A DNA stretch of 64,000 bases from NCBI GenBank assembly GCA_002840355.1, contig PHAL01000012.1, positions 23,898 through 87,897 on the forward strand. Reading direction: 5' to 3'. The notes beneath the pieces were generated by a model. The model worked only from the letters and a program-made list of their open reading frames with translations, did not search any database and was not told the DNA's origin. This DNA comes from Elusimicrobia bacterium HGW-Elusimicrobia-3. GTDB lineage: Bacteria; Elusimicrobiota; Elusimicrobia; Elusimicrobiales; UBA9959. The position numbers and the translations under genes were made by a program. This document shows positions 48,519 to 58,191 of this stretch, piece by piece. Numbering within the stretch: position 1 is the stretch's first letter; every line of letters begins with the position of its first letter.

Positions 48519-51500
48519 TTACCTTTCCACCGCCAGTTTCAGGACTTTCTTGCCGGCGCTGGAATCGATGACGGCCAGGTAGATGCCGCTGGCCACCAGG
48601 TTGCCGGACTTGTTGACGCCCTTCCAGATTATCACGCCGGTGCTGCCGGCCGTGCCTTCCCAGACCTTGTCGCCCGACAGGGTGTAGATGCGCACCTTGG
48701 CGTTCGCGGGGAGGCGGTCTATGGTCACGAAGCCCTGGCCGCGGTTGGCGTAGAACGGGTTGGGGTAGACGATGACGCCGGCCAGGTTGGTGGCGGCCGT
48801 GCGCACCATCAGCTGGAACAGGCTGAAGTGGTTGAGCGTGGCCGTGATCGTGCGCTCGCCTATGTTCACCTGCGTCTCCAGCGGCAGGCACTGCCCGGAG
48901 ACCGGGTTGTAGCGGGCCATCACCACCTGGGCGGCCTTGTTGATGATGTCGTTCTTGGCCAGCGTGGGGTCCTGGTCGAACTTGATGGTAAGCGTGACCG
49001 GGATCTGGGGCTGGAGGCCGTTTTCCGAATAGATGGCCACCTCTATGGGTATGAGGCCGCCGGCCAGGTAGCCGCACGGGTTGAGGTTGGAAGAGGAGAT
49101 CGCGATGGCGGTGGACCCGGGGAAGGAATCCTCAGGCACGAACATCGTGACGGCGCGGTTGTTGGGGAGCGTGCCCGTTATGGTCACGTCCTCGGTGGTG
49201 CTGCTGGTGCCGCCCACGGAGCCGGACGGAGAGCCGGAGGGGCCCGGCACCGTGAAGGCCGCCAGCGCGCGCTTGCGGGCCGTCACGAAGCCTTCCCCGT
49301 TGCGGGCCGCGACGTCGAAGTAGTAAGTGGTCGCCGTGAGCAGGCCGTTGACGAAGGCCTCGTTGGCCGTGTTGAGGTAGGCGAACGGGATGTGCGTGAC
49401 GATGGGGGCCGCGAAAACTTCGCTGGTGGAACTGCGCAGCTCGTAGACGGTGTCGGGCGCGTTGCCGGCGGTGTCCCAGGACAGCGAGATGCCGGACATG
49501 GTGATCTCGTCGGCGGTGAGGCTGCCCGGCACCTTGGCCAGCGTGTACTTGGTGCCCAGGTCTATGGTGGCGCCCGGCACCCCGTCGCCGTTGTAGGGCG
49601 TGAGCGTGAGGGCGTACGGGACGTTGGGCGAGAGGGTGTTGAAGGTCACGGAGGCCTGGTCCGTGGTGACGCTGGCTATCGCCACGGCGTCGCCGGTGGA
49701 GAGCTGCACGTTATAGGCCGTCCAGGTGGAATTGCCGTTGGTGATCCAGTTGACGGTCAGCGTGCCTGTGCTGACGCCGGTGAAGATGTTGGGCACGGCG
49801 GGCAGCGGCTGCACGGTGAGCGTGTAGACGCTCTCGGCCTGGGACCACGGGCCGCGCAGGGGGCCGTCTACGGTGGTTTTGACCGCGCTGACCACGGCGT
49901 AGTACTTCCGGTTCGCCGCGAGGCCGGTCTGGGAGAAGTCCATCAGCGTGGTGGAGCCGACGAGCACGGCGGCTTCGGTGCCGCTGGTGATGTCGTAGAT
50001 CTCGTAGTACGAGGCGCCTATGGCTTCGTCCCAGGACCAGTTTATGGTCGAGCTGCTGAGGGCCTGGCCCGAGAAGTTGTTGACGCCGCTGACGGTGATG
50101 GTGGAGGCGTAGCCGCTGAAGGCGGTGGTGATGCCGGCGCCGTTCATGGCCCTGACGCGGAAGTCGTACATCTGGTTGGCCGAGAGCGACGTTATCACGG
50201 CGGAGGTGCTGAGGTAGTTCACGGTAAAGGGCACCGGCGTGGAGATGGCCAGCGGGTCCGAGAACTTGGGAGCCTTCAGCGGCGACATCGAGATTTCGTA
50301 GGCGGTGATCTCAGAGTTGCCGCTGCCGCTCCACTCCAGCTCGGCCGTTTCGAAACTGGCCGTGTTGATGGTCAGGGCCGAGGGCGCGGCCGCCAGCGTG
50401 TAGTAGGTGGAAGACTTGCTCAGACCGCCGTAGCCGCCCATGTTGAAGGCGGAGACCATGATGGAGGCCTCGGAGTTGGGCGCCATATTGGTCTGCGTGT
50501 AGGAAGCGTTGTCGGCGAAAGCCGTGGTGGCGATGAAGACGCTGTCGGAGGCCGAGTAGATAGCGTAGCCCTGGGCGCCGCCGGAGGGGATGGTGCCGCG
50601 GGTCCAGGTCCAGGTGATGGAGCTGGTGCCCAGTACCGCGCCGGCAGGTTCCGAGGGCAGGCCGGCGGGGCGGGGCACGGTGACCTGCACCGTGTGGCCG
50701 TCTGAGAAGAGGCCGTTGGCCGCCACGCGCATATGGTACCAGCCGTGGGGCAGGGCCCCGGTCTCGGCCGGCGCGACTATGGTCAGCGAGCTGACGGTCT
50801 TTTCCCAGTTGGCAGCGCCGTAGAGGCCGCCGTAATGGGAGTAGATGCGCGTGGAGAGGTCTATCATGAAGCCGCTGGGGTTGTCTATCTGCTGCATGTA
50901 GAGGCGCGGGCTGCTGAAAGAGGAGTTGAGCGGGCCCGCGCCGCCGCCGGAGGCCTCGGTGATGCCGTGGAAGTTGGAGGTGGCGCTGAGCAGCGTGGCG
51001 CTCATGCCGCGGTCGAAATAGACCGTGCCTGTGGAGATCAGCGCCTGCCGGGTGGTGTCGGCCTCCAGGCCGCTGGCGTCGGGGTAGTGGTTGAAATGGG
51101 CGAACTCGACCGTGCTGAGGTACTTCCCCCCGTCCCAGCCGCCGATGTTGATCACCATGTTGTCCCTGGTCATCAGCGAGGTGTGATGGGTCCTGGGGGA
51201 GCCTTTGGCCTGTACGGCCCAGCTCCTGAAATCGGGGTCGAAGCTTTCCACGTAGGGCTGGGCCGTGCCGCGCATTTCTCCGCCGGTGAGCAGGATCTTG
51301 CCGTTGGGCATCAGCACGGTGCGGTGGTTGGCGCGGTTGAAGTTCAGCTCCGTGCCGGAGTCGGCCCAGGCGGCCCCGGTGAAAAGCTCAGAAGTCTTTA
51401 CGCTGTCCTCGCCGTTGCTGCCGCCGATCACCAGCACGTTGCCGTCGCGCAGCTGCACCGCGCTGTGCGCGTAGCGCGCCGTGATCAGCAGGCCCGTGGC

Positions 51501-54275
51501 CACGGAACTGCGGGCGGAATAATTGTAGATCTCGGCCGAATTCATGGGGCCGGAGGCGTTTATGCCGGCGGCCAGCAGCACGTTGCCGCTCTTGAGCAGC
51601 GTGGCCGTATGCTGGGACCTGCGCTGGGCCAGGGTGCCGCCCGGTATCCAGTAGGAAGTGGAGGCGATGAAGATCTCGGCGGTGTTGGAGTAATTTCCGG
51701 GAACCGCCCCGGCCGCCACCAGCACGTTGCCGTCCGGCATAAGCGTGGCCGTATGCAGCTGCCGGGCCGTGGCCATGGGGGAGGTAGGCACCCACCGCTG
51801 GGTGTCGGGGTAGAAGATCTCGGCCGAACTGATGGCCACGCCCCAGGGGGCGATGCCGCCGGCCACCAGGACATTGCCGTTGGGCAGCAGCGTGGCGGTG
51901 TGGTTGGCCCGGGCCATGTTCATCGCGCCGGTGGGGGCCCAGGTCTTGCTGACCGGGTCCATGAGCTCGCAGCTCGACAGCGGCTTGGCCCCGTCGGAGC
52001 CGCCGCAGGTGAGGATGTGGCCGGTGGGCAGCAGCGTGCTGGTGTGGAAGGCGCGCTTGGTGGCGAGTTCGCCGCCGGGCTGCAGGCCGGCCGGCTCGCC
52101 GTTGGTGCCGCCGCCGTAGACCGGGATTATGGCCGTCAAGGCGGTGGCGGTGCTCATGCGCACCGCGCCGCGCAGGCAGTCGGCGCCGGGGTTGAATTCG
52201 CAGTTCTGGCCGCCCAGCAGCACCGTGTCGGCGGCGGGGGTGAGCAGGGCCGTGTGGTTGAAGGAGGGCGTGGCCATGGTGTCGGAGTCTTTGTCGTCGG
52301 CCATCTCCTCCCATTTGTTCTCGGCGGGGCTGTACGAGAGCCGGTTGCTGAAGATCATGGAGCGGATCACCATGGTGGACTGGTCTATGGTGAAAGTGGG
52401 CTCGCGGTCCATGATGGAAACCGTGTCGGCGGTATAGGCGAGATCCACTGAGGCGGAGACCGCGGTGCCGTCGATGGCGAGGGGCGAGTAGTTGGTGGCG
52501 CCGTCCTCGAGCGCCTGGGGGTTGGCGATAACGCCGGCGATGCCGCTGGCCAGCGGGAAGTCGAGGGTGCCGGTAAAGGTGCAGACCTTGTCGAACAGGT
52601 CGTCGCAGTCCGTGACGGCGTTGGTGGTGAGCGTGAAATTGTTGGAGACGGCCCCTCCTTCCACGGTGATGGAGTACAGCTCGTTCTCGATAGCGGCCGA
52701 CTCCAGCGTGGCCCTGCCCCTTATCTGGGAGCGGTAGACGTTGGGCATGTCCACGGTGATGCTGAAAGTGAGCCTGCCGTCGCTGATGGCGCTTTCGGTC
52801 TCCGGGTAGTTGGGCGGGGCGAAGATCACCTGGGAGCCCGCCGCCAGCTGGCCGCCTACGCTCACGGTCTGCGGGTCGAATTCCACCGTGCCGCTGGGGC
52901 TGATGCTCAGCTTGTTCTTGAAATCTCCGGGCTCATAGCCGGCGTCGGAGCTGCCTATGAGCAGGCCCACGGGGAAACCGTCCACTACGCCTATGGTGTC
53001 GGTGGGGAGCGTGAACTGGGCGTTGTCGATGGTGAAGGACGGCGCGCCGATATCCGGCGGGTCCGAGAAATAGATGTCGCCGTTGACGATGCGGCCGCTG
53101 ACCGGGCGCGCCACCTTGAAGTCAGTCATGAACACGATGCCGCTGCTGCCCTGGTTTATGGTCGCCCTGTTGGGGGTGGCGGTAGTGTCGAGGTTTATGA
53201 CGGATTCCGGCAGTATGGTGGGCGAGTCGTTGAAAAAGGTGGGGACGATGTTGCCGTAGCCGCCCTGCAGGGAGAGCACGCCGCCGGGGTCGAGCACGGC
53301 GGTATGCCAGCCCGAGCGGTAGGGCATTTCGCCGTAGGTGTCTTCCCCCACCACGGTGCGCGCGCCGTTCTGGTCGAAGAACTCGGCGCCGTCCACGAAG
53401 CCGTGGGTGCCCACGTCATGCACGGCCTGCACGGCGGGATTATCGATATGCCAGCATTCGTCCTCTATGCTGCCGGGGGCTTCGGCCTGGCAATAGAGCC
53501 AGTTGCTGCCGTTGTGGCCGCCGGCTATCATGATCTTGCCGTTATTGAGCACGGTGGCCGTATGGCCGGTGCGGCCCTGCAGCAGGGCCGATACCGGCGT
53601 CCAGATATTGGACTGCGGGTCGTACATCTCGTTCATCGCCTCGTACTGCCAGACGGCCCCGGTCCAGCGCTTGCCGCCGGTGGCGAAGACGCGGCCGTCG
53701 CGCAGCAGCGTGGCGGCGTGGCCGAAGCGGTTGCTGGCCATGTCGCTGGCGCCGGTGTCTACGGTGTTGGTGGCGGGATCGAAAAAATCGCAGGCGGCGG
53801 TGTCGCCTTGGGTGGCGGTCTGGCCGCCGCAGATCAATACCTTGCCGGCATTGGGGCCCCTGGAGAGCAGCGTGGCCGTGTGGTTGGCCTTTGCCTCGGA
53901 GAGGGCGGCGCCTATAGAGGCGCAGAGCCGGGTGATGGGGTTGCAGATCTCGAGCGAGGCGGTAAAAGCGGCGGCGCCGGTAAAGCCGCCGGCTATCAGT
54001 ACGCGGCCGTCGGACAGCAGGGTGGCGGTATGCGAGGACCTGGCGATAGAAAGGCCGTTGGTCCAGTTCACGAAGGTGTTGGCCGCCATGTCGTACATCT
54101 GAACGCTGTCGGTGAACTGCGCGGCGCTGTGGCCTCCCCCCGTCACCAGCAGGTTGCCGTCGGGCAGCAGCGTGGCGGTATGGGAGTGCCGGTGAGCGAA
54201 AGGCACGGCGCCGGCGCCCGTCGCTAAAAGCGCGGGAGCCAGCAGGGAGAGGAAGAGGACTTTTCTGAAATCCAT
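48519..54275 (-). CDS. 1918-aa exported kelch + FN3 protein with T9SS-CTD/FlgD-like C-terminus
   Basis: Signal peptide, many R..HTATLL..G.VL..GG repeats, FN3 repeats, VYPNPF...RIYTLSG...ASGIY...KLAVER. Confidence 0.9.
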   Translation of the reverse strand: MDFRKVLFLSLLAPALLATGAGAVPFAHRHSHTATLLPDGNLLVTGGGHSAAQFTDSVQMYDMAANTFVNWTNGLSIARSSHTATLLSDGRVLIAGGFTGAAAFTASLEICNPITRLCASIGAALSEAKANHTATLLSRGPNAGKVLICGGQTATQGDTAACDFFDPATNTVDTGASDMASNRFGHAATLLRDGRVFATGGKRWTGAVWQYEAMNEMYDPQSNIWTPVSALLQGRTGHTATVLNNGKIMIAGGHNGSNWLYCQAEAPGSIEDECWHIDNPAVQAVHDVGTHGFVDGAEFFDQNGARTVVGEDTYGEMPYRSGWHTAVLDPGGVLSLQGGYGNIVPTFFNDSPTILPESVINLDTTATPNRATINQGSSGIVFMTDFKVARPVSGRIVNGDIYFSDPPDIGAPSFTIDNAQFTLPTDTIGVVDGFPVGLLIGSSDAGYEPGDFKNKLSISPSGTVEFDPQTVSVGGQLAAGSQVIFAPPNYPETESAISDGRLTFSITVDMPNVYRSQIRGRATLESAAIENELYSITVEGGAVSNNFTLTTNAVTDCDDLFDKVCTFTGTLDFPLASGIAGVIANPQALEDGATNYSPLAIDGTAVSASVDLAYTADTVSIMDREPTFTIDQSTMVIRSMIFSNRLSYSPAENKWEEMADDKDSDTMATPSFNHTALLTPAADTVLLGGQNCEFNPGADCLRGAVRMSTATALTAIIPVYGGGTNGEPAGLQPGGELATKRAFHTSTLLPTGHILTCGGSDGAKPLSSCELMDPVSKTWAPTGAMNMARANHTATLLPNGNVLVAGGIAPWGVAISSAEIFYPDTQRWVPTSPMATARQLHTATLMPDGNVLVAAGAVPGNYSNTAEIFIASTSYWIPGGTLAQRRSQHTATLLKSGNVLLAAGINASGPMNSAEIYNYSARSSVATGLLITARYAHSAVQLRDGNVLVIGGSNGEDSVKTSELFTGAAWADSGTELNFNRANHRTVLMPNGKILLTGGEMRGTAQPYVESFDPDFRSWAVQAKGSPRTHHTSLMTRDNMVINIGGWDGGKYLSTVEFAHFNHYPDASGLEADTTRQALISTGTVYFDRGMSATLLSATSNFHGITEASGGGAGPLNSSFSSPRLYMQQIDNPSGFMIDLSTRIYSHYGGLYGAANWEKTVSSLTIVAPAETGALPHGWYHMRVAANGLFSDGHTVQVTVPRPAGLPSEPAGAVLGTSSITWTWTRGTIPSGGAQGYAIYSASDSVFIATTAFADNASYTQTNMAPNSEASIMVSAFNMGGYGGLSKSSTYYTLAAAPSALTINTASFETAELEWSGSGNSEITAYEISMSPLKAPKFSDPLAISTPVPFTVNYLSTSAVITSLSANQMYDFRVRAMNGAGITTAFSGYASTITVSGVNNFSGQALSSSTINWSWDEAIGASYYEIYDITSGTEAAVLVGSTTLMDFSQTGLAANRKYYAVVSAVKTTVDGPLRGPWSQAESVYTLTVQPLPAVPNIFTGVSTGTLTVNWITNGNSTWTAYNVQLSTGDAVAIASVTTDQASVTFNTLSPNVPYALTLTPYNGDGVPGATIDLGTKYTLAKVPGSLTADEITMSGISLSWDTAGNAPDTVYELRSSTSEVFAAPIVTHIPFAYLNTANEAFVNGLLTATTYYFDVAARNGEGFVTARKRALAAFTVPGPSGSPSGSVGGTSSTTEDVTITGTLPNNRAVTMFVPEDSFPGSTAIAISSSNLNPCGYLAGGLIPIEVAIYSENGLQPQIPVTLTIKFDQDPTLAKNDIINKAAQVVMARYNPVSGQCLPLETQVNIGERTITATLNHFSLFQLMVRTAATNLAGVIVYPNPFYANRGQGFVTIDRLPANAKVRIYTLSGDKVWEGTAGSTGVIIWKGVNKSGNLVASGIYLAVIDSSAGKKVLKLAVER

Positions 54276-54333: not shown

Positions 54334-54831
54334 TTATTCCACCGCTACCAGGGAGTCCCCGGTGGGCGCCTTGGGTTTGCCCGGGTCCAGTTTCTTTTTG
54401 CCGTCCACGGTGAAGTGGTACGGGTAGTTGCCGGGCAGTATATAGACTTCGGCTTTCCAGACGCCGTTCTTTTTTGTCATCGGCTTGGCTTTCCAGGAGG
54501 TGAAGCTGCCGGCCAACTTTACGGATTTAGCCTTGGAGTCCTTATATTCGAAGATCGTCTTGACCGCTTTGACTTTGGCGGGCTCGGCCTTGTCCTGGGC
54601 GGCGGCCTGCGGGGCCGGCTCTTCGGCGGCCGGGGCCGCGGCTTCAGGGTTCTCGCCGGCTTCTTCGTCTCCGGCTTCTTCCTGCGGCGGGGGCATGGGC
54701 ACCGGGCGCACTTCTAGGGTGTCTCCGGGGAAATAAGCAGAGACGCGCCCGTACAGGGAGTACGCGGCGAAAACCATGACGGCCAGACTGATCAGCGCCG
54801 AGGCCGCCCAGAAGTTCTTGGATTTTGTCAT
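54334..54831 (-). CDS. Membrane-anchored CBM48/AMPK-type glycogen-binding domain protein
   Basis: N-terminal TM, acidic linker, VKLAGSFTSW, PGNYPYHFTVDG, DP. Confidence 0.85.
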   Translation of the reverse strand: MTKSKNFWAASALISLAVMVFAAYSLYGRVSAYFPGDTLEVRPVPMPPPQEEAGDEEAGENPEAAAPAAEEPAPQAAAQDKAEPAKVKAVKTIFEYKDSKAKSVKLAGSFTSWKAKPMTKKNGVWKAEVYILPGNYPYHFTVDGKKKLDPGKPKAPTGDSLVAVE

Positions 54832-54886
54832 AGGTAATTCCGGAACGGTGCTGAAAATTAACTGCTAAAACTATTTACGGCTCCCC

Positions 54887-55168
54887 CCATCACCCGCTTT
54901 GAACGCCTACTACCGGTATCGCGAGGCAGCCTGTTGCGCATTGAAATCCAAAAGCGGGTGACCGCGAGCGTCAGCGAGCGTACCCCGTTGAACTTCCATC
55001 ACCCGCTTAAACTTCGAGCCTTTAAAATAAAAGCGGGTGACATGCGAGCGGTAGCGAGCTTCCCCATAAGGAAATTCCCATCACCCGCTTAGGGATTACG
55101 AACAAACAACTGCCTATCCCTGATAACAGTTCTGTTGCTCTTAGAAATTCTAAGCGGGTGATGGGAAT
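54887..55168. repeat. Array of inverted repeats derived from the tRNA-Gly 3' end
   Basis: CCATCACCCGCTT at 54887, 54996, 55078; AAGCGGGTGA at 54952, 55031, 55152. Confidence 0.85.
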
Positions 55169-55223
55169 CGAACCCACGTCTAATGCTTGGGAAGCACTCG
55201 TTCTACCATTGAACTACACCCGC
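55153..55223 (-). tRNA. tRNA-Gly(CCC)
   Basis: GCGGGTG acceptor, TT-CCC-AA loop, GGTTCGATTCC; no CCA. Confidence 0.93.
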
Positions 55224-55299
55224 GTCTATATATATAAAGAACCGCACCGCGAATACCCGTAAATTCTACTTAAAACGGTTATCGTTTTCAATATTATTA

Positions 55300-55854
55300 T
55301 TATCTCTTTATGAGGTCCAGGAATTCCTGCCGCACGCGGCTGTCGGTCTGGAAGCTGCCCAGCATGGCGCTGGTGGTGGCGAAAGAGGTCTCGTTCTTCA
55401 CCCCCCGCATGCTGACGCAGAGGTGCTCGGCCTCCATGACCACCCCCACCCCGCGGGGCTTGAGATGCTTGAACAGCGTGCGGGCCACTTCCTCGGTCAG
55501 GCGCTCCTGCACCTGCAGGCGGCGGGCGAAAGCTTCCACCAGGCGCGGGATCTTGGAGAGGCCCACTATGCGGCCGTTGGGGATATAGGCGATGTGGGCT
55601 TTGCCGAAGAAAGGCAGCATGTGATGCTCGCAGAGCGAATAGAAGGCGATATCCTTTACTATCACCATCTCCTTGTAGTCGGCCTTGAAGAAGGCGCCGT
55701 TGAAGACCTTATCCATGTCGGCGCCGTAGCCGGAGGTTATCTCGCGCAGGGCCCGCGCTACGCGCTGAGGGGTTTTCTTCAGGCCCTCCCTGGCGGGGTC
55801 TTCGCCCAGGGCGTTAAGGATCTGCAGCGCTGCCGATTCGATCGGGTCTTTCAT
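55300..55854 (-). CDS. folE: GTP cyclohydrolase I
   Basis: SLCEHHMLPF, GLSK, RLQVQERLT, HLC. Confidence 0.96.
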   Translation of the reverse strand: MKDPIESAALQILNALGEDPAREGLKKTPQRVARALREITSGYGADMDKVFNGAFFKADYKEMVIVKDIAFYSLCEHHMLPFFGKAHIAYIPNGRIVGLSKIPRLVEAFARRLQVQERLTEEVARTLFKHLKPRGVGVVMEAEHLCVSMRGVKNETSFATTSAMLGSFQTDSRVRQEFLDLIKR

Positions 55855-56709: not shown

Positions 56710-58191
56710 CTACTTCATTCCTTTAAGGGCTTTGAGGGCCTGGTCGCGGGTCTTAACCTTGCCCTCGAACTGCAGCAGCTGCACCTTCTCCAGCAGCTCG
56801 CCTATGCGGGGGCCCTCTTTGATCTTGAGCGTCTTGATGACGTCGTTGCCGTCCACCAGGCGCTCGGCGCCCAGCTTGAGGCTCTTCTTGACGTAGACGT
56901 TGAAGAGCTGGTTGAGCACCTGCATGTAGCGCAGCGTCTTCTTGGGGGAATTGTAAGGCAGGCCGGCCGGCAGCGGGGCCGGGGGCGCCTGCAGCCGCTT
57001 GCGCATGCGCCGCAGCTGTTCGGCCGTGACGTAGCTGGCGTGGTCGGCCCAGGAGAGCGCGAGCAGGGGCACGGTGTACTGGCCCATGGCCCTGAAGAAG
57101 CGGAACATGGCCCTGTCGGAAATGGAGTCGTTGGCGGCCAGGTTGCCGGGCCGCAGGTGGGCGCCGATGACGGCGCAGACCAGCCGGATCTCGTCGCGCG
57201 AGAAGCGCAGGCGCTCCATCTCTTTCCCGGCCATCACCGCGCCGAATTCCTCGTGGCCGAAGAAGCGCAGCCGGCCTTTTACCATGGCGGCCTTGGGAGG
57301 CTTGGCGATGTCGTGCAGCAGGGCGGCGAAACGCAGCAGCCGCGCCGGCGGCAGCAGGTCCCCCGCCTTCTTCCAGGCCGGCAGCCAGGCCGGCAGGTCC
57401 CGGTAAAGTTCGTCGGCGCGCTCCACCACCCGCAGCGTGTGCGTGAGCACCCCGCCCTTGCCGTAGTAGCCCGTGGCGCAGCGCTCCTGCGCCGCCAGCT
57501 CGGGGAACAGGGCGGTCAGCAGGCCGTGCTTGTGCATAAGGCCGAGCCAGGCGTGGGAGTCGGGGCTTTCCAGCAGGCGCATCAGCTCTTCGCGCACGCG
57601 CTCCTGGGCCGGCTTGGCTACCAGGGCGGCGTGTTTCTTTATCCCCCTCACCGCTTCCGGGGTGAGGTCGAAGCCCAGGCCGGCGGCCAGGCGGTAGGCG
57701 CGCATCAGCCGCACCGGGTCTTCTGTGAAAATGGCGGGGGTTACGGGGCGCAGCTTTTTCGCGGCGAGGTCTTTGAGGCCGCCGGCGAGGTCTATGACGG
57801 CGGCGCGGGCAGGCTTGAAGGCGAAGTCGCCTGTTTTGGCGCGGGCGGCGATCCTGACACCGGGCGCCAGGCGCAGGGCCAGGGCGTTCACGGTGAAGTC
57901 GCGGCGCTTCAGGTCGGAGGCCAGCGAGCCGCCCACGAAGGGCATGATGTCCACTTGCGCGCGCGGGGCGGCGCGCTGCGTCAGGCGCCAGACCTGGTTC
58001 TCCTCGTCCAGCGGGAAAGCCGCGGCGCCCAGGCGCGCGGCGAGGCGCCGTACGCGGGCCTCGAAGTCGGGCGAGGGCGGCACGGCCACGTCTATGTCTT
58101 TGAAGGGGCGGCCCAGCAGGGCGTCGCGCAGGGCGCCGCCCACCAGGTAGGCTTCCTTGAATACGCCGGTTACCGCGGCTGTTAAGTCCAT
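56710..58191 (-). CDS. Class II tRNA nucleotidyltransferase with HD domain, probably CC-adding
   Basis: LVGGALRD, DIDV, RRDFTVNA, EDPVRLMR, LHDIAK. Confidence 0.9.
   Translation of the reverse strand: MDLTAAVTGVFKEAYLVGGALRDALLGRPFKDIDVAVPPSPDFEARVRRLAARLGAAAFPLDEENQVWRLTQRAAPRAQVDIMPFVGGSLASDLKRRDFTVNALALRLAPGVRIAARAKTGDFAFKPARAAVIDLAGGLKDLAAKKLRPVTPAIFTEDPVRLMRAYRLAAGLGFDLTPEAVRGIKKHAALVAKPAQERVREELMRLLESPDSHAWLGLMHKHGLLTALFPELAAQERCATGYYGKGGVLTHTLRVVERADELYRDLPAWLPAWKKAGDLLPPARLLRFAALLHDIAKPPKAAMVKGRLRFFGHEEFGAVMAGKEMERLRFSRDEIRLVCAVIGAHLRPGNLAANDSISDRAMFRFFRAMGQYTVPLLALSWADHASYVTAEQLRRMRKRLQAPPAPLPAGLPYNSPKKTLRYMQVLNQLFNVYVKKSLKLGAERLVDGNDVIKTLKIKEGPRIGELLEKVQLLQFEGKVKTRDQALKALKGMK

Follow-up and report, generated by a model that had tools for sequence, protein, structure and literature searches.

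The window analysed here, a stretch of 64,000 nucleotides, carries on its minus strand a tRNA-Gly(CCC) gene (55153..55223; ARAGORN; Rfam tRNA, 72.2 bits), which lies between the GTP cyclohydrolase I gene (folE) and a gene for a membrane-anchored CBM48/AMPK1_CBM protein assigned by domain match (54334..54831, minus strand), all three reading in the same direction. A promoter-like site, TTGAAA-17-TAGAAT (55263..55291, minus strand), is located 5' of the tRNA gene; it is a consensus match only, and in a consensus scan it is the sole minus-strand promoter-like site from folE to the CBM48 gene. The neighbourhood further includes a CCA-adding-enzyme-like protein with PolyA_pol, HD and tRNA_NucTran2_2 domains, encoded 1.5 kb upstream of tRNA-Gly (56710-58191, minus strand), and, directly downstream of the CBM48 gene, a giant secreted protein of 1918 aa with Kelch propeller repeats and several fn3 domains (48519-54275, minus strand). 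As the first-pass annotation had stated, neither an integrase nor a cas gene is found among these neighbours of the array.

The gap between tRNA-Gly(CCC) and the CBM48 gene measures 321 nt and holds two related units, B and A, as well as a terminal half unit, all downstream of the minus-strand tRNA and set apart by spacers of 61, 22 and 52 nt. Following the direction of the tRNA, its 3' trailer (55091..55152, minus strand; the 61-nt spacer of the first-pass annotation), which is homologous in the two nearest relatives, leads to unit B (55031..55090), composed of arms and a module and represented by an orthologue in genomes G020 and G019. Then follow a 22-nt spacer (55009..55030), which together with unit A makes up a 79-80-nt block missing in the two closest relatives, unit A itself (54952..55008), with arms and apex hairpin as in unit B, a 52-nt spacer conserved in G020 (54900..54951), and the terminal half unit (54882..54903; 54887-54899 in the earlier delimitation), an inverted copy of the tRNA 3' end that has no module and is conserved in G020 and G019. 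In tRNA-strand order, unit B consists of the inverted tRNA 3'-end copy (55074-55092), the module TTCCCCATAAGGAA, a direct copy of the acceptor 3' strand (55031-55040) and a T run, and its apex hairpin occupies 55044-55059. The apex hairpin of unit A spans 54964-54979; the part following the apex has diverged, and the unit is flanked by TCACCCGCTTT direct repeats. The core GCGAGCGnnAGCGAGC is found in both units.

The template of the arms comprises the last 16 nt of tRNA-Gly(CCC) and three nucleotides of the trailer (55150-55168). This segment forms a perfect 19-nt inverted repeat with 55074-55092, as had been noticed at first pass together with the inverted arm copies, and arm pairs of 10-11 nt are also present. 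The sequence AAGCGGGTGA occurs six times in the window, always within 54890-55161, that is, in the gap or in the tRNA end, where 0.11 occurrences are expected; six copies were reached in 0 of 100 shuffles of the window. Units, half unit and spacers thus lie where they had been described and are far beyond chance. The spacers had been called unrelated, which does not hold for all of them: the 52-nt spacer has at its tRNA-proximal end 22 nt that are 77% identical to the start of the tRNA trailer, and the spacers are common to the nearest relatives. The earlier concern that the array might be an assembly artefact is settled by independent contigs: a second run of the same study yielded an identical contig for 54881-55116, and a run of another study yielded one for 54843-55028 with one difference and one gap. 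Since the array is reproduced in contigs of two other runs, it is not an assembly artefact.

The units combine a conserved hairpin module with copies of the tRNA end

The module, of about 30-45 nt, is located on the strand opposite the tRNA. Read on that strand, a unit begins with the reverse complement of the last 9-12 nt of the tRNA, followed by about three bases and the 16-nt apex hairpin GCGAGC-GNNA-GCGAGC; after this come about TTCCCCATAAGGAA and a copy of tRNA positions ~56-73. Seen from the tRNA, the module is therefore flanked by an inverted copy of positions ~56-73 and a direct copy of positions ~65-76, and owing to these inverted and direct copies each unit and each spacer is able to fold as a hairpin. 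In a predicted fold of the whole tRNA-sense stretch, the 3' half of the tRNA pairs with the anti-arm of unit B, and alternative registers appear.

Pairing in the apex is antiparallel (G-C, C-G, G.A, A.G, G-C, C-G) and closes a four-base loop, so that four Watson-Crick pairs surround two tandem G.A pairs. Across 51 units, Watson-Crick pairing holds in 203 of the 204 cells, double compensatory changes of two kinds are seen at a single pair (CG 48, GC 2, UA 1), and the G.A/A.G pairs are retained in every unit (51/51). Because the pairs are kept, the changes are double and the G.A/A.G pairs are universal, the pattern of substitutions fits a hairpin rather than a direct-repeat protein site. In the arm helix, the inner five pairs hold in 43-51 of the 51 units and the outer four in about half. 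An RNAalifold consensus on either strand predicts only the apex, or the apex and three arm pairs. On the tRNA strand the apex carries U.C/C.U in place of G.A; the wobble count for the inner arm helix is tilted to the tRNA strand (8 vs 1), which does not decide between the strands.

Several identities for the unit were considered and rejected. It is not a shrunken, inverted tRNA-Gly pseudogene or another decayed tRNA, as its interior obtains no higher score with tRNA-Gly than with other tRNAs: unit B alone exceeds its shuffles (its score is reached by 3 of 500), and for this unit four other tRNAs, three tRNA-Val and tRNA-Thr, do equally well or better. Alignments dispose of a small open reading frame within the unit, every frame being broken by indels between copies. 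As for a known RNA family, an Rfam search (E <= 1) of the window region and 18 loci returned only tRNA and chance matches.

The core occurs in five genera and is linked to few tRNA genes

In its own 2.88-Mb genome the core GCGAGCGnnAGCGAGC is present five times (reversed control pattern, 0), and seven true units are found there at four loci, the five exact cores among them. Extended to the taxonomic family, the search yields 169 cores in 50 of 80 genomes, compared with 5 matches of the reversed control. These belong to 5 of the 13 genera, namely g1 (39 of 42 genomes, in addition to the own genome), g11 (1/1), g12 (3/3), g15 (5/7) and g17 (1/7), while in the remaining 8 genera no genome searched contains the core. 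Two further families of the order were likewise without it, except for one match with chance-like context. Genomes carry between 0 and 14 cores among the 80, mostly behind few tRNA genes, and in a scan of public genomes the carriers are uncultivated Elusimicrobia.

The link to tRNA genes is apparent at each of these scales. A T-stem-like tRNA arm follows within 8-30 nt for 114 of the 169 cores, and in the scan of public genomes a tRNA lies within 400 nt in 20 of the 21 loci of Elusimicrobia type. Among the 47 tRNA genes of the own genome, only the three tRNA-Gly genes (GCC, TCC, CCC) carry units, two each. The linked tRNAs are Gly-GCC, Gly-TCC, Gly-CCC, Thr-GGT and Trp. The units bear the arms of their own tRNA in each case, which answers in the affirmative the question raised at first pass of whether the arms change with the tRNA. 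A search of the non-subscription literature that included intergenic and palindromic repeats of Elusimicrobia at tRNA-Gly found no description of the family.

Two observations concern related arrangements. The own genome contains two different tRNA-Gly(TCC)-tRNA-Thr(GGT) pairs, on C87 (300-706) and C90 (206-400); the pair on C90 has another acceptor sequence, a 50-nt gap and no units, and it could be paralogous or derive from another organism's contig, the stated contamination being 2%. In another genus, locus L235 (G095; also L234 and L237) has two tandem 77-nt units behind tRNA-Gly(CCC) in which the arms derived from the tRNA and the TTCC part are present and the apex hairpin is missing. At a greater distance there follow a fragment resembling an inverted tRNA T arm and, in opposite orientation, a degenerate stretch similar to the apex.

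The arms follow the local gene

Differences between tRNA genes allow the origin of the arms to be traced. The direct copy runs into TC(CA) in 23 of 27 units at CCA-encoding genes, compared with 2 of 24 units at genes without CCA. An A/T variant in the T stem is matched in 39/46 and 7/13 units, and the other variant is never present; the non-matching units comprise 3 with G at this position and 10 that are unclassifiable. An A/G variant in the acceptor is likewise matched, in 4/4 and 46/55 units. Since CCA is copied only where the gene encodes it and mature tRNA always ends in CCA, this comparison indicates that the arms are DNA-level copies of the local gene and not adaptations to the mature tRNA.

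Unit number varies between related genomes and filled sites have empty counterparts

The first-pass annotation had proposed a tiny non-autonomous element that inserts serially at tRNA 3' ends and captures unique DNA, and it had left room for an array that does not vary between strains. Counted over 28 loci of the same genus, the cores between tRNA-Gly(CCC) and the CBM48 gene number zero in 5, one in 11, two in 11 and three in 1, the empty spacers measuring 4, 7, 13, 13 and 51 nt, and the two closest relatives are without unit A; the array is hence not invariant. These two relatives keep the orthologue of unit B and the terminal half unit, and what they lack, the 22-nt spacer and unit A, is the block bounded by the TCACCCGCTTT repeats. 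At the same locus, genome G022 corresponds to the empty site of G077 with 3 x 77 nt added, every block ending with TCGCCCGCTCCA.

Filled sites also exist away from tRNA genes. At G006:C74, two modules of 29-33 nt lie between three direct copies of a 32-36-nt target segment, which is single and module-free in G024, G092, G087 and G081; a filled and an empty site were resolved base by base at this one non-tRNA site and at the tRNA-Gly(CCC) locus. In further arrays away from tRNA genes, the module is surrounded by repeated local sequence of 12, 20 or 37 nt. On contig C95 of the own genome and in relatives, the module stands behind a terminator hairpin and its arms are copies of the stem of that hairpin. 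This arrangement exists in a short version and in a longer one, which has in addition the apex of the hairpin copied in inverted orientation. All these sites share one plan: local sequence, module, local sequence. The empty sites together with the non-tRNA site bearing a 32-36-nt target duplication imply that the module behaves like an insertion, and in this respect the idea of a tiny insertion-like element anchored on tRNA 3' ends has held up. Empty sites of the C95 terminator type may sit in paralogous rather than orthologous contexts, and empty sites in general could be secondary precise deletions between direct repeats instead of ancestral states.

The array at G006:C74 also has a bearing on its neighbour. 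The duplicated segment (L178 / L193) includes the ribosome-binding region, the ATG and four codons of a signal-peptide gene on the opposite strand, and the array thereby yields two extra short upstream reading frames.

The second half of the earlier proposal, the capture of unique DNA, did not survive: the spacers are local sequence common to relatives, in part a duplicated trailer, and searches of the spacers against phage and plasmid collections gave no match. Nor was a mobilising enzyme found with the module. The co-occurring HUH or tyrosine recombinase gene that had been envisaged is not apparent, given that 67 of 80 genomes, from 12 of 13 genera, encode a Y1 transposase (PF01797) whether or not they carry the module, and that no integrase lies near the array. 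PF01797 is missing from the module-bearing genomes G083, G021, G003, G091 and G079, and the single Y1 transposase copy of the own genome has no module nearby. In the own genome, which is 97% complete, neither Cas1 nor a reverse transcriptase was found. Classification as a MITE or classical transposon was rejected on account of arms that are local target sequence, duplications of ~12, 20, 32-36 and 37 nt, and no partner element being seen.

The units lie within predicted tRNA transcripts

In the unit-free relatives (window 54829-55153 compared with L208, L215, L224 and L225), the ATG of the CBM48 gene stands 4-13 nt past the tRNA 3' end, from which it follows that the CBM48 gene would be read from the tRNA transcript. 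This gap makes an unusually tight tRNA-mRNA unit, in which a promoter would not fit. In the window, the consensus scan predicts no promoter-like site in the spacer between tRNA-Gly(CCC) and the CBM48 gene, and the units of the TCC locus are placed between tRNA-Gly(TCC) and tRNA-Thr-tuf. Given the short distance in empty loci, the lack of a predicted promoter-like site in the spacer and the position of the TCC units before tRNA-Thr-tuf, the units are probably transcribed together with the tRNA. Contigs from RNA libraries, which carry neither strand nor end information, touch the units weakly, and their depth lies mostly on the tRNA.

Discussion

On balance, the array behind tRNA-Gly(CCC) probably represents a single locus in a family of tRNA-linked hairpin cassettes that is specific to this lineage and consists of DNA repeats with the behaviour of tiny non-autonomous insertions. 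Sequence comparison shows that the arms are copied at the DNA level, that copy number differs among related genomes, and that at a new site the module appears together with a target duplication. According to this model, landing of the module would leave the target stretch on both sides as a direct duplication, and behind tRNA genes the duplicated stretch would be the last 9-12 nt of the gene, which would explain why a copy of the acceptor 3' strand closes every unit in the direction of the tRNA strand. A staggered break that is then filled in, or template switching at the stable hairpin, could underlie insertion. The inverted arm, which none of the tested steps accounts for, may have arisen in either of these ways as well. 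Once in place, arrays may grow and shrink through recombination or slippage between direct copies, that is, the tRNA end and its own copies, and the units would be mere passengers of the tRNA transcript, from which the downstream gene is expressed as well and in which they appear to be dispensable. Two observations weigh against an insertion: no mobilising enzyme was found, and the length of the duplicated target varies from ~12 to 37 nt. To our knowledge, target duplications varying over this range fit no known transposase. In addition, purifying selection on a cellular function, for example as RNA, would explain equally well why the module hardly varies across genera.

This last point leads to the main rival, which we consider rather unlikely and nevertheless the one to be taken most seriously. 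It regards the units as structured RNA segments with a function in the transcript of the tRNA operon, comparable to the tRNA-linked repeats of E. coli. The copied tRNA 3' end would enable the tRNA-end machinery (RNase P, RNase E or Z, exonucleases) to excise each unit as a small RNA or to punctuate the transcript between tRNA and mRNA, and the invariant apex would bind a protein. The position of the units inside transcription units, from tRNA-Gly(TCC) to tRNA-Thr-tuf and before the CBM48 gene, with no promoter-like site predicted in the tRNA-CBM48 spacer, is as such a function would have it, yet the units are dispensable there, none being present in 5 of 28 same-genus loci and 8 genera having no core at all, and in tRNA-Gly(GCC) loci a canonical terminator stands before each unit. 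A module that stays nearly invariant across genera while the spacers diverge is suggestive of selection, but it is also located at tRNA-free sites. Similarly, the G.A pairs kept throughout and the compensatory changes in the apex would suit a protein-binding RNA hairpin, whereas the tRNA strand has tandem U.C/C.U and not G.A; and although the wobble pairs of the inner arm helix lean to the tRNA strand, the outer half of that helix is kept in only about half of the units. In E. coli, the 3' end of a tRNA-linked repeat has been proposed as an RNase E signal and three of the repeats are small RNAs, according to PMC8144298, while the Elusimicrobia arms track the gene, with CCA encoded or not, rather than the mature tRNA. 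An insertion cassette and a functional RNA of the tRNA operon are not mutually exclusive.

That the units form a stack of intrinsic terminators, or an insulator damping read-through from a strong tRNA promoter into the downstream gene, appears improbable. On the tRNA strand the units of the window are 10-bp GC-rich hairpins followed by T runs (TTTTATTTT after B, TTTTGGATTT after A), and the downstream gene relies on read-through, both of which would accord with such a role; a consensus scan of 54500-55600, however, finds no terminator-like site, and the stem loops measure ~40 nt. Only 12 of 50 units have 5 or more T within the 9 nt that follow the stem, the GCC loci already have a normal terminator in front of the unit, and copy number ranges from 0 to 3. 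A mere terminator stack, which the first-pass annotation had named as the refuting outcome, probably fails as a general account.

Even less probable is an origin as att-duplication scars of integrative elements whose tyrosine integrases are directed at the T-loop and 3' end of tRNA-Gly. The copied block does extend from the T-loop to just past the 3' end, reportedly the usual identity block of tRNA att sites, but its long copy is inverted and not direct, the inserts comprise only ~65-125 nt and no cargo, no integrase gene is nearby, no integrase-bearing island separates tRNA and unit in the loci read, and the module is found with non-tRNA arms as well. A CRISPR-like or other repeat-spacer array storing captured foreign DNA, which the alternation of repeats and spacers in the layout would recall, can be set aside as highly implausible in view of units that differ from one another, spacers without phage or plasmid match that are common to relatives and in part duplicated trailer, and a genome in which no Cas1 was found. 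For annotation, this means that such repeat-spacer patterns behind tRNA genes should be taken neither for CRISPR-like arrays nor for integration scars.

A wider reading of the cassette, which we put forward as a speculation and regard as doubtful, is that the ~30-nt module, a tandem-G.A hairpin with a short tail, may be among the smallest mobile DNA units: it would contain no gene, generate long and variable direct duplications together with a fold-back inverted copy, and insert beside hairpins that mark RNA 3' ends (tRNA acceptors, terminators) and occasionally in other places. If this were true, apex-capped hairpins in unrelated phyla would point to a general, undescribed process of hairpin-seeded duplication at tRNA gene ends.

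Such hairpins do occur. Longer perfect hairpins belonging to low-copy repeat families carry the 16-nt apex GCGAGCGNNAGCGAGC as their cap in Knoellia flava (L056, L151-L175), Propionibacteriaceae (L035, L041, L076, L106 etc.) and Xanthobacteraceae (L031, L046, L154-L168), and at least five flanking pairs are present in 27 of 97 non-Elusimicrobia apex matches. One Knoellia genome has 8 apex copies with compensatory stem changes and 0 control matches. A tRNA adjoins 2 of 98 non-Elusimicrobia loci, and both have arms from that tRNA: a Halomicrococcus chromosome (L082 / L155) shows, behind tRNA-Thr(CGT), an inverted T-loop copy, the apex hairpin and a 22-nt direct copy of the tRNA end, and a Chloroflexota MAG (L033 / L173) has, before tRNA-Arg(CCT), direct and inverted copies of the tRNA 5' end around the apex. 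In the haloarchaeal genome the apex motif is not enriched (3 matches vs 4 for the control). The recurrence of the apex in unrelated phyla may reflect either convergence on a stable cap or a shared process.

Several known systems share features with the Elusimicrobia family. With REP, BIME and REPIN elements (RAYT) it has in common that the repeats are short, structured, palindromic and intergenic, often stand behind genes, occur in clusters and show compensatory stem changes. REP and BIME elements, however, are present as tens to hundreds of near-identical scattered palindromes, whereas Elusimicrobia carriers have ~1-14 copies per genome, the arms are copied from the local target and not owned by the element, and the presence of Y1 transposase does not track the module. 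REP elements also possess a GTAG-type head, of which there is none in the Elusimicrobia family. The att duplications at tRNA genes resemble it in that a block from the T-loop to the 3' end is duplicated beside the gene, and differ by the inverted orientation of the long Elusimicrobia copy and the lack of cargo and integrase. A further parallel is offered by folded single-strand sites such as CTX phage attP and integron attC, in which an inverted target-like pair folds into a hairpin that mimics the target. After integration of this type an inverted copy, a loop and a direct copy adjoin the target, as they do in the Elusimicrobia units; in contrast to these systems, the Elusimicrobia insert amounts to tens of bases only, and its inverted arm agrees with each local tRNA, as that of a pre-formed attP would not.

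Among known systems, the tRNA-linked repeats (TLRs) of E. coli, that is, the 178-bp repeats of tyrT/tyrV, RtT and rrA/rrB/rrF, come closest. As described in PMC8144298, TLRs have been known since 1978, most of them without known origin or function; they are repeats behind tRNA or rRNA genes that finish with 18-19 bp copied in direct orientation from the 3' end of the gene before them, they number one to five per locus, and what they do is largely unknown. The Elusimicrobia units resemble this description (PMC8144298) in lying directly downstream of a tRNA gene, within an operon, and in ending with a copy of the gene's 3' end. They differ in that the long copy, of 16-19 nt, is inverted and the direct copy, TCACCCGCTT in the window, extends over 9-12 nt, in having no relationship to TLRs in sequence or Rfam, where RtT and other families give no match, and in possessing a portable hairpin module that is also found at non-tRNA sites with target duplications. 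Because its long copy is inverted, homology is lacking and the module is portable, the Elusimicrobia cassette family works like TLRs and is not one of them. It offers a cleaner system in which to study tRNA-linked repeats: the module is invariant and easily recognised, the arms are legible as copies of the neighbouring gene, unit number at a single orthologous site ranges from 0 to 3 over many species, and the empty site is known for at least one recent insertion. This makes it testable whether such repeats arise by insertion with target duplication or through selection on RNA, and whether tRNA gene ends are general hot spots for hairpin-seeded duplications.
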